Of a DNA stretch of 64,000 bases, positions 18,058 to 49,775 are shown piece after piece (within the stretch, counting starts at the first letter, position 1; each line of letters opens with the position of its first letter). Both the position numbers and the translations under genes were made by a program. The stretch lies in the NCBI GenBank assembly GCA_043756005.1, contig JAYUTB010000008.1, positions 2,316 through 66,315 on the forward strand, in the 5' to 3' direction. The notes below the pieces were generated by a model that was given only the letters and a program-made list of their open reading frames with translations, did not search any database and was not told the origin of the DNA. The DNA comes from Spiroplasmataceae bacterium (GTDB lineage: Bacteria; Bacillota_I; Bacilli_A; Mycoplasmatales; JAYUTB01).

Positions 18058-19131
18058 ATGATTTATAATAAAAAAACATTCTTATTAAGAAAATCTGCAT
18101 TATTGTTTGTTTTAATGCCGGTAGTAGCGATTATTACTACAGCTATTGATGAAAAAATAGATGGAACATTGATTAAAGATATAAAAGAAGAAGAAATGAA
18201 GAAATGAACAAATGCAAAAATTAAAGCATTTACGTCTGAACAGATTCGATGATTAACACCGGAACAAGTTGGATGATTGAAGAAAAAACAATTTTCAAAT
18301 TTAATAGCAAAAAAAACATTTACTGATAATGAAGTTAAAGATTTATCGCCATTTGAAATATTTATTTTATCTAAAACACAAATTGGATGATTTAAGGAAG
18401 CACAAATTGGATGATTTACGAAAGAACAAGTTGGATGATTAACAAAAAAACACTTTTCAACGTTTAATAAAAAAGAATTTAAAACTTTGTCGCCTTTTGA
18501 AATATCTATTTTATCTGAAGAACAAATTGGAGGATTTACAAAAGAACAAATTAGAGAATTGACTAAAGAACAAATTGGATGATTAACACCGGAACAAGTT
18601 AAATGATTGAAGAACAAACAATTTTCAAATTTAATAGAAAAAAAACCATTTACTAATAATGAAGTTAAAGATTTATCGCCATTTGAAATATTTATTTTAT
18701 CTAAAACACAAATTGAATGGTTTAAGGAAAAACAAATTGAATGGTTTAAAAAAGATCAAATTGGATGATTAACGTCTGAACAGATTTGATGATTAACGCC
18801 GGAACAAGTTGGATGATTGAAGAAAAAACAATTTCCAAATTTAATTGAAAACACGTCATTTAATATTAAAAATTTATCACTGTTTGAAATATTTATTTTA
18901 TCTGAAGAACAAATTGGAGGATTTACTGATGTACAAGTTAAATGATTAACATCTGAACAATTAAAAATGTTTAATTTTAAATTAAATCATAACAGTAAAT
19001 GAGATCAAACAACATGAATTGTTATGTATACATTATTATCATTATCTGCAGCGACTATTGCTGGAATTATAATCTTAATGAAATGAGAAAAAATCAAAGC
19101 AAGTTGTACAAAAAGCAAACTAAGTGATTAA
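18058..19131 (+). CDS. repeat-rich membrane-anchored surface protein (xEQ[IV]xW[LF]T octad repeats)
   Basis: AAGGAAAAA lies upstream of ATG 18058. The product has an N-terminal TM/signal helix, about 20 short repeats arranged in 3 larger super-repeats, and a C-terminal TM helix. The frame is open only with TGA=Trp (at least 15 in-frame TGA). Confidence 0.8.
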
Positions 19132-19214
19132 AAATAATTAATTCTTTATTAATTAAATAAAGTTTTAAAAAAAATTGTTAATATAAAAAATTACAAATTG
19201 ATAAAATACATTAT

Positions 19215-19924
19215 ATGTAATGATTATTGCTATTGATTATTCCCGTAATTAGTATTTTAATAACATATATTAAAAATAAAAAACCAACAGCTAATATAAA
19301 AATTGAGACTTTAACTGAGAAAGTAATAGGACAATTACAAAAACAACAAATTGAATGATTGAGAACATATCAAATTAAATGATTACAAGAAAAGCAAGTT
19401 AAAGGATTTAGTAAAGAACAAATGGGATAATTTACGAAAGATCAAGTTGGTGAATTTACCGAAAAACAAATTAAAGGATTAACCTATGAACAAATAATAG
19501 AATTTACTAAAGCTGGTTTTTTATTATTAAAAGAAAAATTTACCGATTTCATTAATAAAACAACATTTACTAATGATGAAGTTAAAAAATGATCACCGTT
19601 TGAAATTACTATTTTATCTGAAGCACAAATTGGATGATTAACCCGAGGCCAAATTCAATTATTAACCCCAGCACAAATTAAGATATTAACTAACAACCAA
19701 ATTAAACAAATGCAAACAAAATTTACCGATTTAATTAATAAAACATCATTTACTGATGCTGAAATTAGAAAATGATCACCATTGAAATTACTATGTTAAC
19801 ATCAACGCAAATTAAAGGATTAACTAACAACCAAATGAGATGATTTACTGAAGAATAAAGTAAAGCATTAACACTACCACAAATTAAGGCATTTACTAAA
19901 ATTACTTGCATGTATGATTTATAG
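19215..19924 (+). pseudogene. decayed paralogue of the 18058-19131 repeat protein
   Basis: Same repeat types (QIKWL, SPFEITILSEAQIGWLT). The start reads ATG-TAA. There are in-frame TAA codons at 19428-19430 and 19856-19858 and a 1-nt deletion near 19781 (CCATTGAAATT versus CCGTTTGAAATT). Confidence 0.7.
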
Positions 19925-19965
19925 AGCTTTTATTACCAACAATAATCATCGTTATGAAATAACAA

Positions 19966-21710: not shown

Positions 21711-23249
21711 TTATAAAAGTGCCTCAAACAATAGCAATAACTTTACCATAACTTTATGTGGTAATTTTAAAGTAAAATGCTTTGCTTGCACAATATAAGC
21801 TAATGAAAAATTTTGCATAAAAATATTTGCTAGCGTTTGATTAACCATTAAACCAAATGTCATCATCGACGTTTGATGATCATGAAAAAAACTTCGATAA
21901 TCCATGTTGGAAGTGGTTACTAACGAAAAATCATCATCAAATAAAATAGTTTTAGCATGATTAAAGACATGACTTGATTCATATATTTTAACACCAGCTA
22001 ATAATAAATCATCATAATAAGTGCGTGACAAGTCTAATAAAAGTATTTTATCAGTTACGTTAGGCATTAAAATTCGAACATCTACACCTGATATAGCAGC
22101 ATTTTTTAAAGCAATAACAATATCATTTGGTACAATTAAATAAGGGGTAGAAATTCAAATTCTTTGTTGCGTAGTATTAATAAATTTTAATAATAAATCT
22201 TTATAAATAATTTCAGTAATGTGGGGGCCGGTACCGATCACTTGATTAAAATTAATTGTTGTTAAATCTAAATTAGCTGATAATAGATTATTTTTTAATA
22301 ATATTGGTAAAGGTAAATGTTGTTTAGTTAATTCATATCAATCTTTTAAAAATATTAAGGCTAATGAGGTGACGGCACCACCTGTAATGCGTACTTGCAT
22401 ATCTTGTCAACAACCATATTTAGCCGATAAATTAATATAATTATCACCAATATTATACCCACCAGTATATCCAATAACGCCATCAATAATCACATCTTTA
22501 CGATGACACCGATAATTAGTTTTGTAACTAAAAAATGGTCAAGTAACATAATTGTAAAAACAAATTTCAATACCAATATTTTTCATGTTGCGTAAATTTT
22601 TATTAAACAAACCAAATCATGAACCAAAATGATCAAGGATTAAATAAATTTTAACGCCTTCACGATATTTTCTAATTAATAACGCTTCAAATGCTTTAAA
22701 ATAATAACCGTCATGAATAATAAAATAATTTAAATAAATAAATTTTTGAGCATTTGCAATGTCTTCAAACAATGCAAAAAACTTATCAATCCCATTATCA
22801 ATTAATTTAAATGTTAAATTTTGATAAAAAGGAAATTTTGTATAATTAGTCACAAAATTAATTAATAAGCTTTGCCTAGTTGATAAATCATGATTGTTAA
22901 GTAATCATTGCGTATCAGTTCATTGTTCATGATCAAATCACAATTTTTCTGCTAATAACACTTGGTCATATGTTTTACGACCTTGATATTTTTTATTAAA
23001 AATAATAAATCAAAACAGGCCAAGCATTGAAAAAACATTAATGATTAAAAATCAAGTTATTTTAAAACATGAATCACGTTTTAAATAAAAAATATATCAG
23101 GTACAACCAAAAATTAAGCAATAATTAACTAAAAAATAAATTCATAGATAACGAAGGGGAATAAAATAAAAAATACAAAAATAAAATCCACACGTTAATG
23201 CTAAAAATAAAAAAATGGTAAAAAATACAAAAAATAATTTTTGTTTAAT
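21711..23249 (-). CDS. cls: cardiolipin synthase (phospholipase D family)
   Basis: Two HKD motifs (HRKDVIIDG... and HAKTILFDDDFSLVTTSNMDYRS) and N-terminal TM helices. The pieces are joined by TGA. No in-frame ATG precedes the TM helices; the likely start is ATT (comp. 23247-23249), 8 nt after GAGGAAG. Confidence 0.85.
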
Positions 23250-23297
23250 AGTTTAATCTTCCTCTTGATAAGCTTTTTAAAAAAATATCAATTAATA

Positions 23298-23390
23298 TGG
23301 TGGAGTAAGGGGGATTTGAACCCACGCGTCATTTGCACAACCTACCTCATTAGCAGCGAGGCCTCTTCAACCGAACTTGAGTATTACTCC
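23298..23390 (-). tRNA. tRNA-Ser (anticodon GCU)
   Basis: The reverse strand GGAGTAATACTCAAG...CCTCG-CTGCTAA-TGAGG...GGGTTCAAATCCCCCTTACTCCACCA gives a cloverleaf with a long variable arm, anticodon loop CU-GCU-AA and an encoded CCA. Confidence 0.92.
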
Positions 23391-23665
23391 AATCATTACT
23401 AACGCACTAAAAAATTATAAAACAATCTTAGTTTGTTAAAATAATTATATATACATTATAAAAATAATAACAAACGACATGCACATAGAACACAATATTC
23501 AATTGTAATGTTTTAAAAACGAGTAATTCAAATTAAAAACATAAAAGAAAATTATTAAGATTTGTCTCTTTAACAAATGTTTCACTAAAGTGGGTATATT
23601 CACATGTTAGTGAATTCAAACGATATTGTTCAATTGTTTTTTATTTATCAAAAAATCATAAAAAT

Positions 23666-23697
23666 TTGACTTTATATATATATCATTTAAGTAAGGT
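23666..23697 (+). promoter_or_regulatory. promoter-like TTGACT + (TA)5 tract + SD upstream of the 23698 gene
   Basis: TTGACT at 23666-23671, (TA)5 at 23673-23682, then TAAGG before ATG 23698. This is a short version of the cassette seen at 35876, 47434 and 27493. Confidence 0.5.
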
Positions 23698-25343
23698 ATG
23701 TTTATGAACAAATTACTTAAATTATTCCCGATTGCAATAATTGCGCCTATGTTGGCGTTGACTTTTACTTCAGCAGTTGTTACACCTAAAGCTGAGGGTC
23801 ATTTTAAATATATTAACAACTCCATTACATTTAATGGTAAAACTTATTCAACCGATAATTTCAACTCACACAATCAAAGAATTTTAAAAATCAGTAGTGT
23901 GGAAATTATTATTGATAAACCGACAAAAGATTTTGTTTTTTACACAATTAATGGTGTTGATTATTTATATGTTGAAAAACAAAACACACTAATTAATTTA
24001 TCAACCAGTACAAAAGATTCTTACGTAATATATGGTGGAAAACTAAAAGTTTTTAATATCTTGGGGGGGTAGATTATATATTATATTGATATGGATCGCA
24101 CTGAATTTTTTCAACCATCGATCACCTAAAATATTGATACCCTACTGATGAAGTAAATTCTGTTGAAATTCTTGATGGCACTCACATTCAATTGAAATTG
24201 AATAATTCAAAATATGTTTGTTTAAATTTAAACTTACACAATAAAGTTATATCAAGTGATAATTCATTTTGAAAAGTATTTATTGATAATGAAACTGTAT
24301 TTTTAGGATATATATTTTATAATGCTGATTTAAATGAGCATCCAATTTTTAAAACTCCAATATATATGTCTGTATGAGAATACTCAAATATATACATTAA
24401 AAAAGACTTATCTGGGGGCTTGTTTGATTTCACAACAAGACTTACTTCAAAATCTATACAAAAATGCTCGTCTTATAAACCAATAACAATTGACGGCATT
24501 AAATTATTCATGGTAACTGTTGATAATAAACAAGAATTTTATGATGTTGATTTAAATAAAAAAGATGAATACAGTATTAAAATTCTTCACAATAACAATT
24601 ACATTGAACGAACTGTTGCTGATGTTAAAACGTTATTCAAGTTTGATGATGGCGCAAAAATTACATCAATCCTAGATTACAAAAAACTTGAAGAACGAAC
24701 CGTTGATACCGTTAAATTATTAATGGTAACTGATGCAAGTGATGGTGTAAAATTTTATAAGGATAGCGATCAAGCTTTAAATGGTAACTACACAACAATC
24801 AAACCGCAAGACACAAAGTACATTAAACGAACCGTTGATGGTGTGAAAACTTTATTCAAACTTGATGGCACATCAATTACAGATTACAAAGAACTTGAAC
24901 CACGAACGATTGATACCGTTAAATTATTGATGATAACTGATGCAAGTGACAATGTAGCATTTTATAACGATAACGATCAAGTTTTAAATAAAAACTACAA
25001 GTCAAGCACTCTGCATAACACAACTTACATTGAACAAACCGTTGGTGATGTTAAAACGTTATTCAAATTTGATGATGGCGCAAAAATTACAACAATCTCA
25101 AATTACGAAAGCATTAAACCAATAAAAAGCTTATTTAAAAAGAAATACTTAGAAGTAACTAACATTGAAAAAACAGTTGATTGATATAGTAGTATTAGTG
25201 AAGGCAAAAAAGATGATTTTAAAAAAACCTCTGGTATTATAAAATATCAGACTCCAATTGTAATTGGAGCTTCGGTTGGTTCAGTAAGTGTTGGTGCTTT
25301 AATTACTGCATTAATTTTAATTATTAAAAAACGTAAAAAATAA
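23698..25343 (+). CDS. variable surface protein, split by a frameshift at a G7 tract (apparent OFF state)
   Basis: The signal-peptide ORF 23698-24072 stops just after G7. The frame starting at 24069 is open (TGA=Trp) to TAA 25341-25343 and ends in a TM helix plus KKRKK. One extra G fuses the two parts (about 548 aa). Confidence 0.75.
24063..24069 (+). repeat. poly-G (G7) homopolymer at the frameshift point
   Basis: The sequence CTTGGGGGGGTAG can be read directly. Confidence 0.95.
24601..25110 (+). repeat. coding tandem repeats of about 205-220 nt (YIExTVxDVKTLFKxDG...TVDTVKLLM[VI]TDASD)
   Basis: About 2.4 units are visible in both protein and DNA (24601, 24823 and 25027 all begin TACATT[GA]AAC[GA]AAC). 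Confidence 0.85.
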
Positions 25344-25629
25344 ATAATAATCATTTACCAACATTAGCACAACTTGTCAATATTTGAATTTTATTAAAGT
25401 TATCCACGAGCATTATTTGATTTTAAAATTTTATGAATCAATGTTAGTTAATAAAATCTTTATATTACCAGTTAATGGTGTTATAGCGTATGCTAAACGA
25501 GTAAATAATGTTTAAAATTCTTAACAAATATCAATTGATGATTATGTCATATTAATAATAGCTTAAAAAATAATATAAGTTTTTGTTAAAGCTTGGTTAA
25601 TATAAAATGTAATGATAAAAGTTATTTTC

Positions 25630-25661: not shown

Positions 25662-25780
25662 TACTAGCAATTGATAGATAAGTTGAGTTTATTATGGTTC
25701 AGCCGTTCCTTGATCAATATTTGATGTTGTTATGATAAAAATATCTTCTTTTACATAAGTTGTTTTTACTTTTTATATAT

Positions 25781-26353
25781 AAAAAGGAAATTTTGTATAA
25801 TTAGTCACAAAATTAATTAATAAGCGTTACCTAGTTGATAAATCAGGATTGTTAAGTAATCATTGCGTATCAGTTCATTGTTCATGATCAAATCACAATT
25901 TTTCTGCTAATAACACTTGATCATATGTTTGACGGCCTTTATAGTTTTTATTAAAAATAATAAATCAAGTTATTTTAAAACATGAATCATGTTTTAAATA
26001 AAAAATATATCAGGTACAACCAAAAATTAAACAATAATTAACTAAAAAATAAATTCATAGATAACGAAGGGGAATAAAATAAAAAAATGGTAAAAAATAC
26101 AAAAAATAATTTTTGTTTAATAGTTTAATCTTCCTCTTGATAAGTTTTTTTAAAAAAATATCAACTAATATTGTTGAATAAGGGGATTTGAGCCCATCCG
26201 TCATTTGCACAACCTACCTCATTAGCAGCGAGGCCTCTTCAATCGAACTTAAGTATTACTCAAATCATTACTAACGTACTAAAAAATTATAAATAATCTT
26301 AGTTTGTTAAAATAATTATATATACATTATAAAAATAATAACAAATGACATTC
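25781..26353. repeat. degenerate second copy of 22826-23483 (cls 5' end + tRNA-Ser + flank)
   Basis: The two regions align by eye along their whole length, with scattered substitutions and two deletions of about 40 bp. The copies are direct repeats bracketing 23484-25780. Confidence 0.9.
26171..26262 (-). pseudogene. tRNA-Ser(GCU) relic inside the duplicated segment
   Basis: The anticodon arm is identical to the 23298-23390 copy. The 3' CCA is changed to ACA, the acceptor stem is altered, and the T-loop reads GCTCAAAT instead of GTTCAAAT. Confidence 0.65.
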
Positions 26354-26516
26354 AATAAAGACAACAACAATAACACCAGATAAAGCTAATTTTTTTAAAA
26401 AATTAATTACTAATAATTCTTTGTTATGCATAAAATGAATAACAATTTAATTAATCTTTGAAATTATAAATAATTAATAAAACTCAAATCGCTTTTATAA
26501 CAATTTGTTTGTATAT

Positions 26517-27423
26517 TTTATTTTTGACGTTTTTTAATAATAAAAACTAATGCTGTAATTAAAGCAATAATACCTAGTGAAACAGGTAATCCAATTGTTA
26601 AAAGTTGGTTATTTGTATCAGTTTTTGACGTTTCTTGAGCTTTTGGTATTGGTTGAGTGTCTGAAGTTTTTGGTTTTTCTTGAACTTTTGGTATTACTTT
26701 AGTTTCTGAAATTTTTGGTATTGGTTGAGTTTCTGAAGTTTTTGGTGTTGCTGGAGTGTCTGAAGTTTTTGGTATTGGTTGAGTTTCTTGAGCTTTTGGT
26801 ATTGGTTGAGTGTCTGAAGTTTTTGGGGTTGTGGGTTTGTTTATTGTTACATTTTTAACAATTGTATTTTGAAATTTTAATTCAATTTGATCATTTGGTA
26901 ATTCGTTTATTGAATCAATATCATTTGCAATTTCATAACTGATTGAATGGTCTATTTTTGAAAATAAAATTTTTTGATCTTTAATATATGTTATTCAATC
27001 ACCTTCAGTTAAAGAAAAAACTTTTGGAAGATTTTTAATCTTATCATCTGCTTTTCCGGTTGTTAAATTTATAAAATAATTAGAAGTGACTTTGGAACCA
27101 AAACTATCTATAAATAAATAATCATTTTTATCAATCGTCAAAAAGAACATTTTGGTTTTGTAGTCTTTTACATCATCAGGAATATAATAAAAATCATCTT
27201 TATTTAAAATAATTGCATAATATAGATTACCTCATCCCCCTCATTTTCTTTTCTCTATTTTATATGTTTTGTCATTATATTCAATTTCTTCTATAATTCT
27301 TTTATTGTCACTAAATGTTTCAAAATCAGTGAATGATTTTTGCTTAATATCTGCTGAAAATAAAGTAATAACTAAAACTGGTACAACAATAATTGGTAAT
27401 ATATTTTTCAATAATTTTTTCAT
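26517..27423 (-). CDS. surface protein with Pro/Thr/Lys-rich repeats; C-terminal membrane anchor out of frame
   Basis: ATG at 27423, signal peptide MKKLLKNILPIIVVPVLVITLFSA. The frame checked codon by codon ends at TAA 26533-26535. The anchor SLGIIALITALVFIIKKRQK* (to 26517) lies in the adjacent frame after the A4/T4 run at 26579-26582. Confidence 0.7.
26590..26830 (-). repeat. imperfect 27-30-nt coding repeats (PIPK[TA][SQ][DE]TQ)
   Basis: GGTATTGGTTGAGT[GT]TCTGAAGTTTTTGG-type units are repeated about 7 times. Confidence 0.8.
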
Positions 27424-27493
<70 letters not shown>

Positions 27494-27584
27494 ATTTGAT
27501 TGATTTAGTTTGATATTTTAGAGGTTGTTATGTTATTTTTAAAATCAAAAAACTAACTAATGTTTAATATGTTAAAATTTATGC

Positions 27585-28778
27585 ATGAGTTATAAAAAAT
27601 TATTTACTAGCGAATCAGTTTCAGAAGGTCATCCTGATAAAATATGTGATCAAATTTCGGACGCAGTATTGGATGCTTGTTTAACACAAGATTCACATAG
27701 TCGAGTATCATGTAATTTGTTTATTACCGCCGATCAAATTTTGATCGGCGGTGAAATAACTACCAATGCCAAAATTAATTTTAATGAAATTATTCAAACA
27801 GTTTTTGATGACATTGGTTATAAGATTACTTTAAATAAAACTCCATCAATCAAAAACGAACGACATAATTTTCAAACCAACATTAGTGTTCATCAACAAT
27901 CGCCAGAAATTCATAAAATGGTTAATAACCTTGATCATCATATGAAATATGGCGATCAAGGGATTGTATTTGGTTATGCAGTTAATGAAACTGATAATTA
28001 CTTACCTATAGCATATACATTAGCCAATGAACTTTTAAAAAGAGCTACTTATTTAAGAAAAAACGATCAATTTCATAAAGCTTTACCTGATATGAAATCA
28101 CAAGTAACAGTTCGATATACTGATAATCCATCTTGTCCGATTCAAGTTGAAAAAGTAGTATTAAGCATTAATCATTATCAACACGATTCTAATGAAACGC
28201 GTGATCAATTTCGTCATTTTATTAATACGGAAATTATTGATCATGTATTGCGTCAATTTAATTTAAACATTGATTGTGAAAAGTATATTAATAATAATGG
28301 TGATTTTGTATTAGGAGGGCCATGAGCTGATAGTGGATTAAGTAATAAAAAAATTGTAGTCGATACTTATGGAGGAGGCGGTAGATGTGGAGGGGGGGGT
28401 TTATCAGGTAAAGATCCAACAAAGCCAGATCGCAGTGGTAATTATTTAGCTAGATATATTGCTAAAAATATTGTCGCTACAGGATTAATTAATAAACTTG
28501 AAATTCAATTAAGTTTTTTAATTGGATCTGAAAGTCCAATTGCAGTAGCAGCTGATACTTTTCATCATGCTAAAGTTACGGAAGCAATGATTTTACAAAT
28601 CATTGCGCAGCATTTTGATTTAACTTTGCAAGGTTTTATTAATGATTTAAAACTTTTAAGACCCATTTATCGACAAACAAGTGTGGGGGGTCATTTTAGT
28701 AACGCTACTTTTCCTTGAGAAGCAACTGATAAAACAAGCGCCATTAAAAAAACACTGTTAACATTAATCGGTTCATAA
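27585..28778 (+). CDS. metK: S-adenosylmethionine synthase
   Basis: FTSESVSEGHPDKICDQISDAVLD at the N-terminus, and GGG...SGKDPTKPDRSG further in. The frame continues past TGA 28323 to TAA 28776-28778. It contains an in-frame G8 run at 28392-28399. Confidence 0.95.
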
Positions 28779-28780
28779 AC

Positions 28781-29263
28781 ATGGTACAAGCGTTTAATAA
28801 TCAACAATTAGAATTAATAATTCATAATCGAACTAAAAATAATATTTTAAATGAATGATTTACTGATATTTGACTGATTTTTAATACTTGTATACAACAT
28901 TTAAAGATTACCAAACTATCAAGTATCAGTTTAGTAATTGTTAAAAAAAGAAGTATGCAAACCTTAAATAATAAATATAATGTTGCAACAAAGCATCAGC
29001 AACATGCTGATGTATTAAGTTTTCCAGCACAAATTGAAACAGCTGATAATATTAACCAACTTGGTGATATTTTTATATCAGTTGATAAAGTGATTACTCA
29101 ATCATTAGCTTATCATCATTCCATTAGAAGAGAATTTTGTTTCTTGTTTTTACATGGTTTGTTGCATTTATTAGGTTATGATCATCAAATTAACGCCGAA
29201 GAAGTCATTATGTTTCAGATCCAAACTAATATTTTAAAACAATTAAATATTAACCGCCATTAA
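28781..29263 (+). CDS. ybeY: rRNA maturation endoribonuclease YbeY
   Basis: The zinc motif HGLLHLLGYDH is present. ATG 28781 follows metK directly. The N-terminal part is joined through TGA codons. Confidence 0.88.
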
Positions 29264-29366
29264 AATTGCATAATTTGTCATATTTTGATATATAAATGTC
29301 ATAATTAATGACGTGCTTTATAAACTACACTTTGTAAAGCACTTTATTTAATAATCATTATCACGA

Positions 29367-29669
29367 TTAAAAATTATTTTTTCATTGCGTTAGCACATTA
29401 ATAAATAATATTACAAACGTTTCCGTTAAAAAGGCAATCATGATGCCTAAACAAAATCATTTTAATGATTTGATTGTTTCTTGTCTTTCTAAGCCTTGCG
29501 TGGCATATATTTTAATACCAATAATAATGCCACGAATTACCGCAAATAAACTAGTAATCACTAATAAAGCAGAAATAATACCATTACAAATGTTTTTAAT
29601 AGTGATTAATAATTCATTATTCGCTAATGTCATATTCATCATGGTCGTCATCATCAGTTCATGCATCAC
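29367..29669 (-). CDS. small two-TM protein, last gene of the T4SS-like cluster (possibly pilin/VirB2-like)
   Basis: Track ORF 29457-29669 extends through TGA to TAA 29367. About 100 aa with two hydrophobic helices. It overlaps the 3' end of the upstream gene. Confidence 0.5.
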
Positions 29670-32001
29670 TTTCTAATTGATCAGCATTAATAATCAATGC
29701 TCTTTTATTTCTGTTACGGATATAAAAACAAATGATAATTAAACCCACAAAAAATATCATCGATCCGGCTACTACGCCAAACAAGATCATCAGATTAGTT
29801 CAGGTGATTTGTTCATCAAGTTGAGCTTGATATTTGTTATAAGCATTAATGATTATTTCCTCATATTTTTTTTGTAAATTTAAATAATTGTCACGGGCTG
29901 CTTTAGATATTGGTCGGGTTCAATTATGGAGTTTTAAGATAATTGCTTCTTTAGTTTGCCAATCTTTAAAGTGGGCGTTTTTAAAACCATCATCGATTTG
30001 TGCTGTTAAAAAAAGCTTGGCTTTAATAATCGTTTTTTCTAAGATGCCTTTGGTTCAATGATTTCAAAAATTACTGAAAGTAATAAAAGAAGATATGGTT
30101 GTGTCGTTGATATCTATTACATCACGCACAATGTTTTGATGTTCATAACCGTTGACATTTAGTAATTGATGTTTTATAAAAGCGGCGGTTAATTGGGGAT
30201 GATAGTTAGTAATATTTGTTAATCAACTGTGCATTTGATGATGATGTTGATTTTTAATAATATTAAGTTGATGAGTTAACATTTGATGATCAAGTTGATT
30301 GATGGTGGCATCATCAATGTTAAAAAACTTGACTCATGTTAATTGACGAGGTGTAATATTGTTGGGTACTTGATCACTACCAAGTTGTAAATAAAAATCT
30401 TGGTGTTGGTGGTTGATTTTAACAACGGTTAATTTTAATAAAGTAGTATTTAAACCTGGTTGATTATATAAATTTTTATTGACAACCTGATCACTGAGTG
30501 GTAATGGTTTTCAAATATCTTTTTCTTTGATCGATAATTGGGTTGATTTTATAAAATGAGGAAATTTATTTTGCAGCTGGATTTGTTGATGGGGGGTGTA
30601 ATAAATTTTGACCGTTTGCTGATCAATGGTTCTTCATACATAATCTTTAATTAAATTATTTTTGGCTCAAAAAAAATTTTGAGCTAAGGCTTTATTAAAT
30701 AATGTAAAATTGATAATTTTAGTATTACCATATTGATCGTTAACAACGATTTTATAATCATTAGGTTGCGTAAAGGTAAACATGATTTGATTATTTTTTA
30801 AGGTAATTTGATATGGTAGTTTGGGTGATGAATTTTTAATCACAATTTTGTTAGCAATTGTGATAGCTGGTTCACCATTAATGATGATGTTTTTAAGAGT
30901 ATTATCAAGTAAAATATGTCAATTAATTTGATCGTCAAAGTAATATGCAGTTTTTTTAACATTTTGTTGATCAGTAAAATAAGTAATTAACTGATCGGTA
31001 GTGTTGTGATAATGATATAAATATTGATAAATATTATTGTGTAAGGTAATTTTTGTTTTATCAAAGCTGTTAATATAAAATGGTTTTTGAAGAGGCGGAA
31101 TTAATTGATTATTGATGGTTACAAAGAAATAATAATGTTTATCAACGTGTTGACTGTTGATTTGATCAACTAACATGGTCGTTTGAAATTGATTTTGTTT
31201 GGTGAAAGTGAGTTTTTGTTTTTTTCATGGTGATTTATTACCAGCACGAAAATTTAATTCAAAAAATAAATGTTTGAGAACTTGATTAGTAAAATGTTTG
31301 CTATGATGAGTTAGTTTAAAGGTTAGTTTAAATGGTTTATTTTTGAAAATTGGTTGAGGTTGCTGGTTAAGACTAGTAACATTTGTTTGATGAACATTAT
31401 CATCAACAGCAGTAATATTTAGTTGCAGATCATTGAAATCGACCAATAAAGCATAATCTTTTTTTAACAACGATGTGTTATCGCTCGGATATCAAGTGAC
31501 TTCTTTGCCATCTTCTGATAAAGGTTGATCTTTAGGATATCGATATCAATACCACACACCACCACTGGGTAGTCATAAATTAACTCGTAAATTACTTAAA
31601 TACATATTTTTTTTATCAAATCTGATGTCGGGGGCGTGAAAATTAGCTCAGGATACTTTTTGAGCAGGCTTGTCTAAATCAGTAATTGATTTACGATATC
31701 AAGCTTTACAATGTTGTGTTCTTTCGCCACGCAATCATCCATAAGCGACATGACATTTATTAATGGATCAATCAACTCAATCATCTTTACGAAAATAAAG
31801 ATAATTATCATTAATACGCACTTCTTGTCAATGAGCTGAATCTTTAAGCAGTTGTTTTTTCTTAAAAGCACCACTCACTAAATACCAAGCGTTATTTTCT
31901 CAGATGACAGCAACATCAGTATGAATTAATAATGATTGGTTTTTTATAGGTGGGGAGAGATGTTGCGATGATAAAAAAAAATTATTATTAATAATCACCA
32001 A
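29617..32001 (-). CDS. large Trp-rich protein with C-terminal TM anchor and acidic tail (about 794 aa)
   Basis: A single frame traced codon by codon from TTG/GVG near 31996-32001 to TAA 29617, with many TGA. It includes track ORFs 30919-31176 and 31225-31470. C-terminus: MILFGVVAGSMIFFVGLIIICFYIRNRNKR...DDDDHDEYDISE. No family recognised. Confidence 0.6.
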
Positions 32002-32029
32002 AGTTGTTTAATAAATTTAATAGTACGAA

Positions 32030-33091
32030 TTATTTTTTAAACACCCCTCTTTTTAATTTTTTAATGATGCTACTCATTTGTTGTGTTTCGTAACTTAAAT
32101 TTCCTTTTATTTTGAAAACTTGATCATAAACATGTTGCGCTCTTACTAAAAAAATGCCGGAGGCAATCAATAATAATAATTTTAAAATGACATTTGCAAA
32201 AAAATCATCTTTGTTAAAAATCATGAAATGATTGATGGTATATAATTTACTAATGACTGATATAAAAATAAATAAATTCAGATTTAAACCAAAAATTAAT
32301 AAGGTTTTTGACACAAGGGTGGTTTGTCAATTTTTAAAATGCTTACCACCATCATAAGCAATTCACGCAATTGCCAGTGGTCCTAATAAAAACAACAGTA
32401 ATATTTCAAACATTCTTTGAATTAAACAAAGACACATTGATGTTAATGTTCAAATAATAACACCTGCTCCAATCATCACTATGATGTTGTGAAATTGATG
32501 TTTTTGATCATAACTTCATTGGTAGTTTAAAGTAATATTAGTGATCTCAGCTTCGGTCATTAATTGATGAGGTGTAAAACCGGATTGATAAATTTTATCA
32601 GCAATAATATTAGTATCTAAACTGTTATGATGTTGAAAAATAGCCCCCATTAACAAAAAAATATAATTATTAATGGTGATAAACAACATTGGAAAGGTAA
32701 TGATAAAAATAATAGCCACAAAAACATGTTTAATAATATTGTTTATTTTTCATGATTCTTGATTAGTAAATAAAAGATTAATTACTTTTAATATTGCCGC
32801 TAACATAATGACACCACCTGCTAGGATGGAAATAATCATATAAAAGAGATTGTGCTCGTTCATGTTTAATTCATGTAACATTCATTTAAAAAATTGTTCG
32901 CCTAATAAATAGTTAAAAACTATACCAATTTTTTGCACGATTTTTAATAGAAACATGGTAATTTGAAAAATCAAATTATAAAACCATGTATTTCATCATG
33001 CTGCATTTGGTCCAATATTTAATGAAGTACATATGATCAGCAACACGATTATCAAAAACATTTTTAAACAATAACGACCGCGTCGTGACAT
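32030..33091 (-). CDS. polytopic membrane protein (VirB6/TrbL-like position)
   Basis: ATG at 33091. Track ORFs 32030-32314 and 32516-32719 share a frame joined by TGA. At least 6 hydrophobic helices. It lies directly downstream of the VirB4-like gene. Confidence 0.6.
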
Positions 33092-33101
33092 ATTATTAAA
33101 T

Positions 33102-35597
33102 TTAAAACAGATCTTTTTCATATTGATCAACTGTAATTTTTACTTTATTCATGATATTGTCTGAAGCAATTAATAAACACTCACCACGGTGTAATTGATT
33201 AATTTGTGAAATCACCAGTTGGTTTTTAATTGATTTTTTTAAAAGAGTATCAAAATTATTAACATCACCATCATTTAAATTAAAAACCAACATGGTTTGC
33301 GCGTTGTTTAAAATACTTTCGGTTTTAAAACTATGGCTAATATTGACGAAATCTTTAATGTTTTGACTAATAATAATTGTGCCACCTTGATATTTTCTAA
33401 TGCGTTTTGTTAAATTAAAAATAAAATTAAGGGGTTGATAGTGATAATTATCGGCAAATTGATTGATTAAAACATGAGCTTCATCAATCACAATGTATAT
33501 ATAATGAGATTGTTGATTGAGTTGATTAGCTAAGCGATTTTTTAAAACTTCTTTTTCAACATAATAAAAAATTAAAAACAACAATGCTTTACTAAATGAA
33601 TTGTTATAACTAGTTTGTAAAGAACTAATATCAAATAATGTAATACTTTTTTGTAAATTTAAATTAGTATGACAATTAAAATAACTGGTTTTGGTAAGTA
33701 AGGGTTTGAATAATTCAGCTAATTCAAGATTAATTTTGGTTGCTTCACAAACTAAGCAATTATATAAATCTTGCAAAACTGGAAAATCAGCGCTGGTTAA
33801 ATAAGCAAGCTCACTAAAATTATCAATTTCTTTATCTTTATACATTTGATATAAAAAAGTCGTTAATACATCAAGTTTGGTTTTATTTAAAAAAGGAAAT
33901 AAAATATTAAATCAGATTTGTAAAAAAGCAATATGATTGTCCAACTTTAAATGATTGTCAAAATATATTTCAAAAGGATTAATATAAATATTTTTATTTT
34001 GAAAATCAATAATATCACCTTTTAATGAAGTGACAATGTTGCGATATTCTTGTTCTGGATCAATAATGATGATTTTGTTTTGATTTAAAACAGCTTGTTT
34101 AATAATTTTTTTAGCCGCAATTGTTTTTCCTGAACCACTTTTACCAAGAATAACGATATTATGATTAATCCGTTGTTGATTTAAAAGATCAGGATTAAAG
34201 ATAATATGACTTTGATTTTGTTGATTAATACCTAATATTAAACCTTGTTTATCTTGATATTTTTCATATGCAAAAGGTCAAAACGCAAATCAAGTAGTTG
34301 ATAATATTTCTTGATGATGATAATTATAAAATAATGGGCGAGGTTGATTTCATTGCAGGCATTGTTTTAAAGCAGTGGATTGTTCAAAAAATAATTCGTT
34401 AATCATGAAGTTTTGTAGTTGTAATTGATTAGTAATTTGAGTAAATGTTTGTTTTAATTGTTTTTTGTTATCGGCTTTGATAACAAAAAACAAATTAGTT
34501 GCATAAATTTCTTGATTAGTGGTAGCAACTTCATTAATAATTTTTTCAAAATTTGTTTGCAAAGAATGATGTTGATTAATCAATTTGTCGGTAGTGTCAG
34601 TTGCTAAATTATTGATGGCTTTGGTAACTTGTTTTTGAAAATTAAGTTTATTAATGGTGTGTCATGACATGTAATAGTTTAAATTAGCTAATGATTCATA
34701 TTTTGATAATCATTGTGGCGAAATATGAACTGGGTAATCTTCAATAGTAAAAAATTTATAATAAGTAGTATTAATTTTTAAGCAATTAAATTTACTAGTA
34801 ATTTTAACGTTCAAATCGGTAACGTTATAAAAATTTAATAATATTTTGATAGTTTCAGGAGCGGCCAATATTTTTGGAAACAACGGCAAATCATGATTAT
34901 TTAACAAAGCTTTATGTTCTTCAAAAGCAATTTTTAAATTTTTTTGATCAGGACTAGTTAAAATAATACTTATTAAAGGTTCAGTTAAAGTGGTTGTTAA
35001 GTTTTGGTATTTTGCTAATTCCAACATTAACAAATGTTTATAATCTTGATTGGTAACTATTAATTGTTGAATGTAATCAATTTGATCTTGTCAATTTAAT
35101 GGTTGGGTTAATTTAACAATATTAATGTTAATGTTATGTTTTTCGATTAATTTGAATGAATTAGTGATGATTTGAATTAATTGGTTTTTTTGCTGATCGT
35201 TAAAATTATGGAGATTATAATGATTGATAGTTAAAAACATTACGTAGTTGTGATTGATTTTAATAGTTTCATGGTTATTAAGTGGTTCTTGAAAAATTGA
35301 TCAGATTTTATTAAAAGTTAGGGTTTTTATTTTTTTAATTAAAAATAAAAACATGAGAATTAATAATTTATAACCTTTGATGTTGAAGGTGGGAATATTA
35401 ATTACCAACATGAAACATAAACTAAATCAAAAACACATGATCATGATTTTGATTCAAAATAACACATGAAATTTAAAAATTAAAAAAGCTAGTAAAATAA
35501 AGATAAAAATTAAACAACCATCGGGCAATGTAAAATTTTTAAAAATCTTTAATTTAATTTTGTTAATTTTTTTACATATTAAATATTCATGATTCAT
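33102..35597 (-). CDS. VirB4/TraE-like type IV secretion ATPase with N-terminal TM (VirB3-like) segment
   Basis: Four track ORFs in one frame (831 aa). Walker A ILGKSGSGKT, IIIDPEQEY and Walker B YIVIDEAHVL are typical of the VirB4/TrsE/TraE family. Two to three N-terminal TM helices. Confidence 0.85.
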
Positions 35598-35875
35598 ATA
35601 ACAACCACATATTATATATCTCTTAAAATGCAAACTTTTCCTTAAATATTTTTTTTATTTAAAAAAAATATTTATATAACGCAATGAAAATAATCTATGT
35701 TGGGAGATAATTATAGGTAAACAAAAACTAATTAATGTTTATTTTGATAAAAAACAATGCAAGATGTGTAATAAAAATTATTTATTGTTGGCCTTTTTAA
35801 TATGTTGATAAATAGATTGTTTAACGATGGAATGGTAATTATTGGTGATGTTTTAATCAAAATCAACATAAAAAC

Positions 35876-35935
35876 TTGACTTTATATATATATATATATA
35901 AAATAAAAATAACTTATGTAAAGGAAGTTATTTTT
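35876..35935 (+). promoter_or_regulatory. promoter/leader cassette with (TA)9 and SD-overlapping hairpin
   Basis: TTGACT 35876-35881, (TA)9 35883-35900 (17-nt spacer to TAAAAT), AAATAAAAA, hairpin AATAACTT/AAGTTATT 35908-35932 overlapping AAGGAAG, ATG 35936. Confidence 0.7.
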
Positions 35936-36178
35936 ATGAAAAAATTATTGAAATTTACAAACCTAAATAAAGTAGTTTTATTTAGTTTGGTGACAATTCC
36001 GGTAGCTGCTATTTTAATGACGGCAAATGCTTGTCAAGGACCAACAGGACCAGCAGGATCTAAAGGTGAAACAGGAGCAGTAGGACCTAAAGGTGAAACA
36101 GGAGCAGTAGGATCTAAAGGTGAAACAGGAGCAGTAGGACCTAAAGGTGAAACAGGAGCAGTAGGACCTAAAGCGTAA
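35936..36178 (+). CDS. small collagen-like (Gly-X-Y)n putative lipoprotein
   Basis: [33 protein letters not shown] (signal peptide ending in Cys) is followed by 15 uninterrupted G-X-Y triplets ([18 protein letters not shown]...). SD AAGGAAG lies upstream and a strong terminator follows. Confidence 0.75.
36065..36172 (+). repeat. 27-nt tandem repeat x4 (GETGAVG[PS]K)
   Basis: GGTGAAACAGGAGCAGTAGGA[CT]CTAAA starts at 36065, 36092, 36119 and 36146. Confidence 0.95.
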
Positions 36179-36210
36179 AGTAAGTTAAATTTAACTAATA
36201 ACTAAACCTA

Positions 36211-36248
36211 ATGTTAGAGTTAAAATTTATAAATTTTAACTCTAACAT
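36211..36248. terminator. 18-bp perfect stem hairpin
   Basis: ATGTTAGAGTTAAAATTT-AT-AAATTTTAACTCTAACAT, located 33 nt after the collagen-like gene stop. Confidence 0.8.
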
Positions 36249-36660
36249 GAAATTAAGCTGTTAATTAATATTATTTAATTTTAGAAATCTTTTTTAAAAT
36301 TTTAAAAAAGATTTCAATTTTATTTGTGTTTTAATAATCTTTGTATATTTATATTATCACTGATTTTTTTAATATCATAAATCAATATTATATAACAATC
36401 GCCGTTATTTGAAATCTATAACTATTATAAAATAACAATCTTTTTTTGTATATTTATAATTTTTTTTAAGGACATCTTTTGTAATAATTTTGCCAATTAT
36501 ATGTCCACCTTTTAATGATTAATAACCTGTGCTAGTGATTTTAATTTGTATTCTTAAAAATACCCGTCTACAATAACATCATATTTAATGTTTGTTACAT
36601 CTACTCTACAATATTAGTTTTATAATAAAAAAAATTGATATCAACATTTGCTTCTAACAT

Positions 36661-36899
36661 TTATTGTATAGAAGATATACATTGTTTTTCATTTTTCAAT
36701 CCTACAATATAAAGTCTTTCTCTGTTTTGAGGCATATTTGAATAATTAGTTGTATTTATAATTTTGAATTTGATGTATATCTTAAATCTATTAATTTGTT
36801 TAAAATAGTAGCAAACGTTTCTTCGTTTTTATGAGGTTTTAAATTTTTCACATTTTCTAAAAAATTTTGGTTGTAATTTTTGAACAATTTTAAATACAT
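36661..36899 (-). pseudogene. relic of a C5 cytosine DNA methyltransferase (motifs VI-VIII only, frameshifted)
   Basis: Reverse frames give ...NFLENVKNLKPHKNEETFATILNKLIDLRY then, after a frameshift, IKFKIINTTNYSNMPQNRERLYIVG. These are the ENV and PQxRxR motifs of Dcm-type enzymes. The N-terminal AdoMet/PCQ motifs are absent. Confidence 0.6.
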
Positions 36900-46424: not shown

Positions 46425-47382
46425 TTAGTTGTTGTTTTGAGCTGCTTTTAATTTTGCATCGGCTTCATCTAATGTTTGTTGAGCTGTTTTTAATTTTGCA
46501 TCAGCATCGTCTAATTTATTTTTACTTTCTAATCAACTTGATGAGTTGTTGAAATTTAAATTTGCAAAATCAATTGTTTGGTTAAATTTACTTAAAATAG
46601 GTTTGATATATGATGGAGAATATATATTATTCAATACTTGTAAAACATAAATTGATGATCAATTTTGATTTTTGATTGCATTAATTACATTAAATTCATT
46701 TTTTACAAACATAATATTAAAATTATTATCACTCGATTTTGGAATGAATAATGCAAGTAATTCTTTTAGTGCTGTTGTTTTTGTTTTTTCATCGGTTGCG
46801 TTAATTCATTTATCTAATAATGTTTTTTTAGCAGTATCTGTTGCAGGCATTAATGCTGTAAGTAATGTTTTTAGTGCGTTTATTTTTTCTGTTTCATCGG
46901 TTGCGTTAATTCATTTATCTAATAATGCTTTGTGATCTTTTGCTAATGCTTTAAGTAATTGTAGTAAAGAATTTTCGGTTGTTGCGATATTTGATGCTGG
47001 ATTTATAAATAATTGAAAATATGTTCTGCTTTTATCTCCACTTTTTGATAAAATTTTATTTAAATTTGTTGTTAAATTAGATTGTTCGGTTTGTAAATAA
47101 AATTTATAATTAAATATTGATTTAAGTAAATCTAAATCTAAAATTTTAGAATTTAAGAAATTTGAATTTATAATATTAAAATTTTGTTGAGCATGTTGTT
47201 GGTTTGTTTTTGCATGTTGTTGGTTTGTTTTTGCATGTTGTTGGTTTTTTATTGCATCATCTAATTCTTTATCAACACCTCAACAATTTTTTGCTGATGT
47301 TGAAATAACAACTGCCGGTATTGTTATCAAACTAAATAAAACAACTTTATTTAAGTTTGTAAATTTCAATAATTTTTTCATA
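46425..47382 (-). pseudogene. putative surface lipoprotein, frame broken inside the signal peptide at a T5 run
   Basis: ATG 47382 gives [16 protein letters not shown]. After removing one T at comp. 47338-47342 the frame reads LFSLITIPAVVISTSAKNC... and stays open to TAA 46425. It contains NQQHAKT x3 and LLDKWINATDE x2 repeats. Confidence 0.7.
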
Positions 47383-47434
47383 AAAACAACTTCCTTTTCA
47401 TAAGTTGTTTTTATTTTATATATATAAAGTCAAG
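47383..47434 (-). promoter_or_regulatory. promoter/leader cassette with (TA)5 and SD-overlapping hairpin
   Basis: On the reverse strand: TTGACT (47429-47434), T, (TA)5 (47418-47427), AAATAAAAA, hairpin AACAACTT/AAGTTGTT (47386-47410) overlapping AAGGAAG, ATG 47382. Confidence 0.65.
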
Positions 47435-47820: not shown

Positions 47821-48356
47821 TTATTTTTTACGTTTTTTGATGATTAAAATTAATGCAGTAATTAAAGCGATAACTAATATTAAGCCGCCCCCGCAATAAT
47901 TGGTATCTTATATTTTGTTCAAATTAATTTTATTTTATCAGCTTTGTTTGTTGTTAATTTTAAATCAGTTGTATATAAAGTTTTAATATTATCAACTGTT
48001 TTTTCAATGTAATTTGTGTTGTTGTGATTTACGATTGTATATATTTTACTTTCAATACCATTAACATCATAAATTTTATCAGCTGTTATGAACAATTTAT
48101 CATTATCAATTTTAATTAAATTATTTTTAATGTATTTTTTAGTTTTATCTTTGTTAGTTACTTCAATGGCTTGGTTTGTTATTGTTCACCCATCTTTTAT
48201 ATACATTAGTGTTTTGTTGTCTATAGTTGCTAAAATTATTCGCAAATCAAGCAGAGTTAATGTTGAAATACTCGTGTAATTTTCTATTAGATAAAACAAG
48301 TTCTTTGCATAGTATAAAGTTTTAGTTTTATCTTTATTAGTTACTTCTAAACAATG
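47821..48356 (-). pseudogene. C-terminal remainder of the 48357-49775 surface-protein gene (cut off by TAG and by a frameshift)
   Basis: The frame stays open after TAG 48357-48359 down to TAA 47880 and keeps the same repeat type (YIEKTVDNIKTLYTTD). The TM anchor LILVIALITALILIIKKRKK* (to 47821) is in the adjacent frame beyond the C5/G5 run at 47888-47892. Confidence 0.6.
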
Positions 48357-49775
48357 CTAAAACAATTTTGTTTGTTGAGTAATTTCGCCAATGTAGCTTT
48401 TTGTTTTGACTTTTAAGTCTGCTGTATATAAAGTTTTATTTTCATCCTTGTCAGTTGTTTCTAAGTAATTGATTGTTAAATCCGATTCCAAGATAGAATT
48501 TTGTTGTTTAAATTCAAATATGCGTTTTTTAATTGAAGTGTAATTTGTAATTGAATTTGTACCATCCATTGTATATAAAGTTTTAACATTATCAATTGTT
48601 TTTTCAATGTAATCTGTGTTGGGTGGTTTGGTTGTTTTGTATAATGTGCTTTGTTTTAAATCAACATTATACAATTTTATTTCTGTATCAAAAGTTACTA
48701 TTAATAATTTGTCAGTATCAAGTGTTTTTTCTTCGATGGTTTTGTAGTTTTCTATTTTTTTAGTTGAATCACTTAAAAGATATAAATTATTAGTTTTATT
48801 ATCGTTATTTTTTGATATGTATTTGATGTCAAAATATTTTTCAAGTTGATAAATGTTTTTTAACACTAAATCAGTATCAAAAAATTTATTTTCTTCACCA
48901 ATCGTTGTCATAAATAATTTTGTGTTATCAACAGTTATTTTTTTAATATCGTCAGTGTAGTTTTCAATTTTGTTTTTTAAGTCTGTTGTATATAAAGTTT
49001 TCGTACCATCTACGTTAGTTGATTCTAAGTAGTCTTTACCATCAACTTTTTTTTGTGAAATTGTTTTGTATTCGTTTGTTCAATTGTCGAAATTATACAA
49101 TAATATTGTTTTTCCAGAAATTGTTATTTCAATATATTTAATATTATTTATTTGTATAAATTTTTTAGATGCGTCTACTTTTTTAAAAGTAGTCATGTTG
49201 TAAACACATTCAGCATCATTAATATTTAATATTAAATAATTGTTTGGAAAAATTGTGAATTGTTTAGTAATGTTACTAATTTTCATGATTTTTTTTGTTG
49301 GATCGGTGAAAAGATATAAATCAAATGTGGGAGATGTATGAAATTGATATTTGATATAATATATATTAAAGTAATCTATTAATACATAATCTGGTGTTGA
49401 AATCTCTAATGTATGGAATAAAAAATTTTTATTTTTAACAGTTGTTGTTTGAATGTCACCTGAATATTGGGTTTTTTGATTTGCATTTTTTGTATATAAA
49501 GTTTTTGTCTTGTCAAGGTTATCTTTGATTATGTAATCTATACCAAAATGTTTTTTGTTGGATAGGTTTTTGTTGATGATGGTGGTTTGTTGGTTGGTAA
49601 AAATTCAATTGTCGGAGGTTCCAGTAATGTTATATAATATGCCGTCTATAGTAACAGATTTTATTGAAGGCTGAGATGTATTTTGTTGAACATCAGCACT
49701 CATTAATAAAGCTGATACTAATATCATTGGAGTGGTAATTAATAATGGCGATAGTTTGTAAAATATTTTTTTCAT
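48357..49775 (-). CDS. surface protein of the KTLY-repeat family (truncated form, 472 aa)
   Basis: ATG at 49775, signal peptide MKKIFYKLSPLLITTPMILVSALLMSA. Track ORFs 49080-49286 and 48357-48911 share a frame joined by TGA. It has repeats Y[IL]ExT.D..KTLYT like the 23698 gene. Confidence 0.7.

Follow-up and report, generated by a model that had tools for sequence, protein, structure and literature searches.

Wise et al. (J Bacteriol, 2006) are said to have described the Vmc modular contingency loci of Mycoplasma capricolum, and a (TA)n switch in the fimbrial hifA/hifB promoter of Haemophilus influenzae was reportedly described by van Ham et al. (1993). Here we analysed a stretch of 64 kilobases (kb) from the draft genome of a Spiroplasmataceae bacterium (GenBank assembly GCA_043756005.1, contig JAYUTB010000008.1, positions 2,316 to 66,315), referred to as the window, in which a promoter and leader cassette with a TA repeat between its -35 and -10 boxes recurs in front of genes for putative surface proteins. 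In the summary of PMC2996958, phase-variable membrane-protein genes of M. capricolum and Mycoplasma mycoides are described as 'governed by modular contingency loci', with (TA) tracts located 5' of each gene, and a single M. mycoides genome contains six poly-TA tracts (N = 10-16), each in front of a lipoprotein gene (PMC3053259). Passages of PMC2628566 and PMC10502178 attribute the switching of M. mycoides Vmm to dinucleotide insertions and deletions in the promoter spacer, and a passage of the latter source describes the Vlp genes of Mycoplasma hyorhinis as independently turned ON and OFF, with a poly(A) tract in the promoter region. An earlier note on this DNA had considered a family defined by a shared regulatory cassette to be unusual; this view was not borne out, as the Vmc 'modular contingency loci' (PMC2996958) and the poly-TA-preceded lipoprotein genes of M. 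mycoides (PMC3053259) are precedents.

A promoter and leader cassette with a TA tract as spacer

A 24-kb stretch of the window holds four intact copies of the cassette (A to D) and one truncated relic (E). The module consists, in this order, of the -35 box TTGACT, one to three T, the tract (TA)n, a -10 hexamer that opens with the last TA of the tract, a leader hairpin, and an ATG followed by a signal peptide. The strict pattern TTGACTT-N(0-4)-TATATATA-N(0-24)-AAATAAAAA had three matches in the window, one each in copies A, B and C, and none in 100 dinucleotide-preserving shuffles. Together with the short form in front of gene D and relic E, these matches confirm the recurrent TTGACT-T(1-3)-(TA)n-hairpin-ATG arrangement that the earlier note had described. 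Tract positions, determined with Tandem Repeats Finder and a regular-expression scan, agree with those given there for copies A, C and D, and had to be corrected for copy B, whose tract had been placed at 47418-47427 (Table 1).

Long TA tracts are confined to cassette sites. Only four tracts of at least five units occur in the 64 kb (n = 9, 5, 13 and 5), compared to 0.58 expected from a first-order Markov simulation of the window, which expects none of at least nine units. All four tracts directly follow TTGACTT (a search for TTGACTT with a following tract gave five matches versus 0.64 expected), and in every intact copy the tract starts 1-3 nucleotides (nt) past TTGACT. A perfect tandem repeat thereby fills the spacer between recognisable -35 and -10 boxes in four copies, a placement that was described correctly before. 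The -35 box TTGACT is near-consensus, and the -10 hexamer takes its first two bases from the end of the tract.

The homology between the copies is modular. It begins about 20 nt 5' of the -35 box and extends into the coding region, while the mature parts of the proteins differ. Copies A and B are 86% identical over 149 nt, an alignment that runs through the whole signal peptide and stops just past the lipobox Cys; the leader peptide common to both was confirmed. The alignment of A and C (77% over 94 nt) stops past MKKLLK at codon 6, and shorter alignments were obtained for A and E (87% over 52 nt) and for D and B (78% over 40 nt). The genes behind the cassette had been called otherwise unrelated, which is not true of all of them: the product of gene C and that of gene D with its reading frame restored are distant paralogs (31% identity over about 200 amino acids (aa), E = 1e-10) that have a C-terminal membrane anchor in common. 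Consequently, the cassette fronts two predicted structural classes rather than four unrelated genes, namely A and B with a lipoprotein-type leader ending in Cys, and C and D with a signal peptide and a C-terminal membrane anchor in place of a lipobox Cys. In the lipobox regions of A (..TANAC/Q) and B (..SAKNC/W) the Cys is located past the hydrophobic core, and the lipobox is atypical in both.

The product of gene A matches Pfam Collagen (E = 1.7e-8). Its Gly-X-Y triplets are encoded by a 27-nt repeat of 4.9 copies with 95% identity (36043-36173), and its mature part comprises only about 47 aa. Protein B is an orphan: clustering of about 15 billion proteins left it as a singleton, and a search of 5.8 billion sequences returned no relative.

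Table 1. Positions of the cassette elements and of the associated genes in the window. For each tract, the number of TA units (n), the resulting spacer and the n that would give a spacer of 17 nt are listed; ON and OFF refer to the geometry expected under the proposed switch.
Feature	Position	Strand	Details
Cassette A, A-rich upstream region	35856..35875	+	common to C and D (..AAATCA..AAAA before -35); from alignment
Cassette A, -35 TTGACT	35876..35881	+	from pattern search
Cassette A, (TA)9	35883..35900	+	n = 9; with the single T at 35882, spacer 17 nt, length expected for ON; 17 nt at n = 9
Cassette A, -10 TAAAAT	35899..35904	+	last TA plus AAAT
Cassette A, leader hairpin	35903..35937	+	35903-35915 pairs with 35925-35937; -9.2 kcal/mol, z = -4.3
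Strict-pattern match, copy A	35876-35909	+	n = 9
Gene A	35936..36178	+	80-aa putative pre-lipoprotein; leader ...ANAC, then 15 Gly-X-Y triplets
Cassette B, -35 TTGACT	47428..47433	-	
Cassette B, (TA)5	47417..47426	-	n = 5; spacer 9 nt, OFF geometry; 17 nt at n = 9
Cassette B, leader hairpin	47380..47414	-	ribosome-binding site in loop; -11.1 kcal/mol, z = -4.5
Strict-pattern match, copy B	47408-47433	-	n = 5
Gene B	46425..47381	-	intact; 318-aa putative lipoprotein; leader peptide of A
Cassette C, -35 TTGACT	27488..27493	-	followed by TTT
Cassette C, (TA)13	27459..27484	-	n = 13; spacer 27 nt to TAAAAT, OFF geometry; 17 nt at n = 8
Cassette C, leader hairpin	27422..27456	-	loop without AGG ribosome-binding motif; -7.3 kcal/mol, z = -2.4
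Strict-pattern match, copy C	27450-27493	-	n = 13
Gene C	26518..27423	-	301-aa protein; signal peptide, Pro/Thr-rich 27-nt repeats, C-terminal membrane anchor ending KKRQK
Cassette D (short form)	23666..23686	+	TTGACT, T, (TA)5 at 23673-23682, -10 candidate TATCAT at 23681-23686; n = 5; spacer 9 nt; 17 nt at n = 9
Gene D	23704..25343	+	signal peptide, repeats, C-terminal anchor; frameshift at G7 (24063-24069)
Relic E	25730..25785	-	leader and (TA)4 only; start codon now ATC; hairpin lost (no fold); 87% over 52 nt to A

RNA folding predicted a stem of 13 base pairs with a 9-nt loop between the -10 hexamer and the ATG of copies A, B and C. The loop of A and B contains the ribosome-binding motif AAAGG, and the AU of the start codon lies within the 3' arm. 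Among the three copies, two pairs of the stem are changed on both sides (U-A versus C-G, and A-U versus U-A). These compensatory changes are suggestive of a hairpin that has been kept, but with three sequences they are not significant, 44 of 500 shuffles reaching the observed covariation. Since the 5' arm overlaps the expected start of transcription, the full stem would form only in DNA or in read-through RNA. The hairpin may stabilise the 5' end, set translation, or silence read-through transcripts. A function as intrinsic terminator was rejected, as the U-run belongs to the 3' arm and GAAAAAA comes after the stem.

The palindromic leader (AACTT-N9-AAGTT within the 13-bp inverted repeat) might instead be the target of a site-specific recombinase, with promoters or coding regions swapped by inversion or gene conversion as in Vsa, Vsp and Vpma, and with the TA tract being incidental. 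The inverted repeat is kept with its two compensatory changes, weak as this covariation is, the copies occur in both orientations (A and D on the plus strand, B and C on the minus strand), and a rearrangement breakpoint falls into the TA tract of relic E. However, each gene has its own complete promoter and no single expression site exists, the genes are scattered across 24 kb with housekeeping genes between them, and inversions between copies would flip 8-24 kb including the housekeeping genes metK and dnaB. No recombinase domain was found in the neighbouring genes that were scanned. We therefore consider recombination at the leader extremely improbable.

Spacer geometry and the proposed switch

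The -10 hexamer consists of the last TA of the tract and four fixed bases (TAAAAT in A, B and C, TATCAT in D). As it opens with the last TA, the spacer length in nt is 2(n-1) plus one for every extra T, and each TA unit gained or lost shifts it by 2 nt. Per locus, a single tract length yields 17 nt; one slip takes the spacer from there to 15 or 19 nt, or back again. The attainable n of copy A gives the optimal spacing of 16-18 nt, which neighbouring n do not. The canonical 17-nt spacer is present in copy A only, while B, C and D are off that length. The arithmetic of the earlier note was right in this respect: nine units put TAAAAT 17 nt from the -35 box, five units shorten the spacer to 9 nt, and in C a TATATA hexamer falls at the 17-nt distance.

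For comparison, TTGACTT...TAAAATAAAAA sites were collected from the species-representative genomes of GTDB release 232 by a pattern that allowed spacers of about 7-40 nt. The 65 matches, in a collection that contains neither the source species nor any relative with the cassette, were all ordinary TTGACT-N-TAAAAT promoters, none of them with a (TA)n tract. Spacers of 16-18 nt were found in 30 of these 65 unrelated sites, with a mode of 17 nt (19 sites), the value at which copy A is located. A scan of Joint Genome Institute (JGI) metagenomes with a stricter pattern gave one chance match, again without a TA tract. In several metagenome-assembled genomes of uncultured Bacilli/Tenericutes (L002, L010, L018, L030, L060), the scan of the GTDB genomes also revealed an identical TTGACTTCTATATAAAAATATACTAAAATAAAAA promoter in front of rpmH (MKRTFQPNNRK...), a conserved ordinary promoter that is not related to the cassette. 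Within the window, TTGACW-N16-18-TAWAAT matched twice, copy A being one of the matches, and canonical -35/-10 pairs were otherwise no commoner than chance. Given this rarity, the perfect TTGACT in all four intact copies deserves attention.

We consider slipped-strand ON/OFF switching at the promoter spacer the best explanation for this arrangement and assign it a probability of about 0.68. The sigma-70-type promoter, the short leader that carries the hairpin and the ribosome-binding site, and the initial codons of the signal peptide would form one modular contingency cassette, copies of which precede at least four genes for surface proteins. Slipped-strand mispairing during replication would add or remove one TA per event and thus change the distance between the -35 and -10 boxes by 2 nt. 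Transcription would be efficient only at the n that gives 17 nt (9 for A, B and D; 8 for C) and silent or weak otherwise. As the loci would slip independently, a clonal population would carry mixed combinations of expressed surface proteins. The sequenced state would represent A at its ON length and B, C and D at OFF lengths, and gene D may be subject to a second layer of control by the G7 run in its coding sequence, the frame of which is currently broken. The anatomy of the cassette, its spacer geometry, the confinement of long TA tracts to these sites and the modular homology were observed directly; slippage at a useful rate, the transcription start site and an expression that depends on n are what we infer.

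A slippage switch had been proposed in the earlier note and, apart from the claim that a family of this kind is unusual, the proposal gained support from the spacer geometry, from the single 17-nt length per locus, and from the finding that A is at this length and B, C and D are not. Birth and death of copies also count in its favour, with relic E truncated at its TA tract and extra paralogs located on other contigs.

Several points weigh against such a switch. The Logan assemblies of SRR23617201 and SRR23617200, which are the same or sister runs and may be the genome's own source or stem from the same isolate, give the same n as the window (A 9, C 13, D 5), so that no variation of tract length was seen among them. 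A Logan contig (L072) assembles straight through the tract of cassette D, with (TA)5 and the G7 run of gene D unchanged. Another contig from SRR23617201 (L069; 8.4 kb; window positions 27457-35905) carries (TA)13 and (TA)9 unchanged; it starts 2 nt outside the (TA)13 of C and ends 5 nt past the (TA)9 of A, and by inspection no 31-mer common to the copies accounts for these breaks. As evidence for switching, the breaks are weak and ambiguous, since they fit length heterogeneity and poor read coverage of TA runs equally well. Contig ends as proof of length heterogeneity were rejected, as the break positions are unlike a simple assembly-graph branch and poor coverage explains them equally well. 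Furthermore, B and D at n = 5 are four gains away from the ON length, and since short tracts slip rarely, both may be effectively locked off. Finally, mapping of transcription starts in mollicutes indicates that many promoters there need hardly any -35 element, or none at all, which would weaken the dependence on spacer length.

The identical n in every available assembly and the short tracts of B and D (n = 5), far from the ON length, would also be expected if an ordinary promoter and leader module had spread by duplication and the differences in n were due to old slippage and are stable now. Copy A would then be constitutive, and B, C and D would be silent or decaying and not switchable. The frameshift in gene D, the clear relic E, and the in-frame stop and frameshift in the neighbouring family gene 49775-47821 are in line with decay. 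However, the frames of genes B (318 aa) and C (301 aa) are intact with 5 and 3 in-frame TGA-Trp codons, respectively, and the perfect -35 box is kept in all four copies. Perfect tracts of 9 and 13 units are, moreover, intrinsically unstable and would not be expected to persist without selection. Based on this, we regard stable, formerly slipping tracts as unlikely.

As a further alternative, transcription may be driven mainly by the -10 region, as in many mollicutes, with the TA run acting as a flexible, easily melted AT-rich upstream element or as a source of TATATA hexamers resembling a -10 box, so that n would tune expression in a graded manner. The TATATA hexamer 17 nt from the -35 box in C, a weak TTTAAA in B, which is located 17 nt upstream of TAAAAT, and the chance-level frequency of canonical -35/-10 pairs in the window would agree with this. 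TATATA, however, lacks the conserved final T of the -10 hexamer, and an irrelevant -35 box would hardly account for a near-consensus TTGACT that all intact copies keep at a fixed distance of 1-3 nt from the tract. In addition, the closest published system is reported as ON/OFF in a passage of PMC2628566. Graded control of this type therefore appears highly improbable.

The spacer switch may also be combined with the hairpin and the G7 run in a more elaborate scheme, in which a Vmc-like (TA)n cassette originated independently in a deep-branching mollicute. In this scheme, the hairpin would form fully only on upstream read-through transcripts and keep OFF copies untranslated, transcripts starting at the cassette promoter would lack the 5' arm and be translatable, and a coding-region poly-G run would provide some members of the family with an additional, independent switch. 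All parts taken jointly, we judge this scheme doubtful.

Copy D, relic E, the surroundings and the host

Cassette D lacks AAATAAAAA and the 5' arm of the hairpin. The start of gene D had been placed at 23698; the ATG at 23704 aligns with the other copies and replaces it. The G7 run splits gene D into the frames 23704-24072 and 24366-25343, and one added G results in a frame of 545 aa. Both the paralog P0243 and the alignment of C and D read straight across the G7 site. The run is thus either a candidate coding-region switch or a plain frameshift.

A fifth, decayed copy had been noted at 25741-25785. The copy exists (at 25730-25785), but more than decay has shaped it: a duplication took the place of its -35 side, with the breakpoint in its (TA)4. 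Relic E as a copy with a mutated -35 box was rejected, as the sequence past (TA)4 is a 96% copy of a portion of the cls gene region. Gene D and relic E are bracketed by direct repeats of about 600 nt (22824-23480 and 25779-26350; 94-98% identical), each of which holds a tRNA-Ser(gct) (23298-23390 and 26173-26263) and the 5' part of a cardiolipin-synthase gene. The second repeat has its left edge within the (TA)4 of relic E, which places the rearrangement breakpoint in the TA tract.

Further paralogs of the family, P0243 and P0244, are located on other contigs, probably of the same assembly. A 3' module encoding a C-terminal membrane helix that ends in KKRKK or KKRQK occurs with 84-96% DNA identity at 25277-25349 (gene D), 26512-26584 (gene C) and 47821-47868 (a broken gene), and is also present in P0244. 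As this module recurs at gene ends, the family is modular at both ends. The broken gene (47821-49775, minus strand) is large, belongs to the same repeat family (KTLYT motifs) and is not preceded by a TA cassette. Its reading frame is interrupted near 48358 by an in-frame TAG and at a G5 run (47888-47892; C5 on the plus strand) by a frameshift, the latter cutting off the C-terminal membrane anchor.

In the surroundings of gene A, a 55-nt palindrome is located 3' of the stop codon (36176-36283), where the Logan contig L066 ends. Directly upstream of cassette A, and divergent from it, are genes for a VirB4/TraE-like ATPase (33102-35597; Pfam TraG P-loop, DUF87) and large membrane proteins (29617-35597), and a fragment of a DNA methylase (47 aa; 36756-36899) is encoded beyond gene A. 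The ATPase, the membrane proteins and the methylase fragment may be remains of a conjugative element. Two further repetitive regions were observed in the window. The region 18058-19950 is internally repetitive with periods of 24, 48 and 144 nt and encodes a membrane protein of ..EQIGWLT.. units rich in TGA-Trp that matches Pfam ALTTAQ_rpt (PF20080, E = 1.7e-17). The second region (13160-14136) comprises two arrays of 108-nt tandem repeats (71-86% identical) that encode ..RKWFSKKQP..NQDNELE.. units in the N-terminal half of an ABC-type ATPase gene (12378-14147, minus strand).

The G+C content of the window ranges from 24 to 31%. Reading TGA as Trp is required for its genes to be intact (10 in-frame TGA codons in adenylosuccinate lyase and 2 in MetK), and a class B RNase P RNA is present; both features indicate a mollicute with genetic code 4. 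Among 5.8 billion proteins, the closest MetK besides the organism's own is 49% identical and the closest RecA 54-57%, the named matches in this range coming from Catenibacterium, Lysinibacillus and Spiroplasma. Sequences of the organism were found only in SRR23617200, SRR23617201 and SRR22198335 (Logan) and in one NCBI draft assembly. Judged from these comparisons, the organism stands alone phylogenetically, and none of its sequenced relatives is close.

With a switch at the cassette, antigenic variation by a mechanism that is textbook knowledge for mycoplasmas would extend to a lineage without close sequenced relative and to proteins without known homologs, which points to convergent evolution or to a great age of a promoter and leader module with a slippery spacer. 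The cassette would flag those surface proteins, a collagen-like mini-lipoprotein among them, for which differences between clones are likely. TTGACTT(TA)n provides a simple key for genome-wide searches, and assemblies are liable to break or collapse at cassette sites.

Comparison with Vmc, Vmm, Vlp and hif

As far as the summary of PMC2996958 and general background describe the Vmc system of M. capricolum subsp. capricolum (vmcA-F), it resembles the present family in that several dispersed genes each have their own 5' (TA)n module, that a common region for expression and membrane translocation is joined to different mature parts, and that some of these mature parts consist of in-frame tandem repeats. 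The same description includes independent switching per locus and combinatorial expression, which would apply here by analogy. In contrast to Vmc, the module identified here also fronts non-lipoprotein, C-terminally anchored proteins (C and D), and its tracts are shorter (5-13 units). The host is located far outside the M. mycoides cluster (MetK 49%, RecA 54-57%), and no sequence homology to Vmc or Vmm was found: proteins A to D did not match any NCBIfam mycoplasma variable-lipoprotein or signal-peptide model, protein B was without relative, and the cassette scan of the GTDB species representatives returned no genome of the M. mycoides cluster.

Vmm is a very small lipoprotein, like the product of gene A. 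According to passages of PMC2628566 and PMC10502178, TA insertions and deletions in the promoter spacer of Vmm in M. mycoides cause reversible transcriptional ON/OFF switching, and M. mycoides (strains PG1 and 95010) also resembles the present case in carrying poly-TA tracts in front of lipoprotein genes, several of them with differing N in one genome (PMC3053259). Organism, protein families and cassette sequence differ from those of Vmm, for which switching was demonstrated experimentally, whereas here it is deduced. The Vlp genes of Mycoplasma (Mesomycoplasma) hyorhinis likewise form a family of surface lipoproteins with one hypermutable promoter tract per gene and independent ON/OFF control, as described in a passage of PMC10502178. 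The Vlp tract, however, is a poly(A) homopolymer that changes in steps of 1 nt, whereas the spacer in the window contains no poly(A)/poly(T) run but a TA dinucleotide repeat that would change in steps of 2 nt. In the hif promoter, the (TA)n run reportedly also constitutes the spacer between the -35 and -10 boxes, the number of units setting the spacing and with it promoter strength. Unlike the cassette, hif is a single divergent promoter pair of one operon in a Gram-negative bacterium and is not copied in front of many genes.

By anatomy and geometry, the cassette belongs to the mechanistic class of Vmm, Vmc and hif, although sequence comparison indicates that it is not a member of the Vmc/Vmm family by homology. 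The design of the switch is already known and opens no new class of mechanism. What is new is its host, a deeply divergent mollicute, and the proteins behind it, which are orphans without homology to Vmc or Vmm and include gene D with its G7 frameshift.

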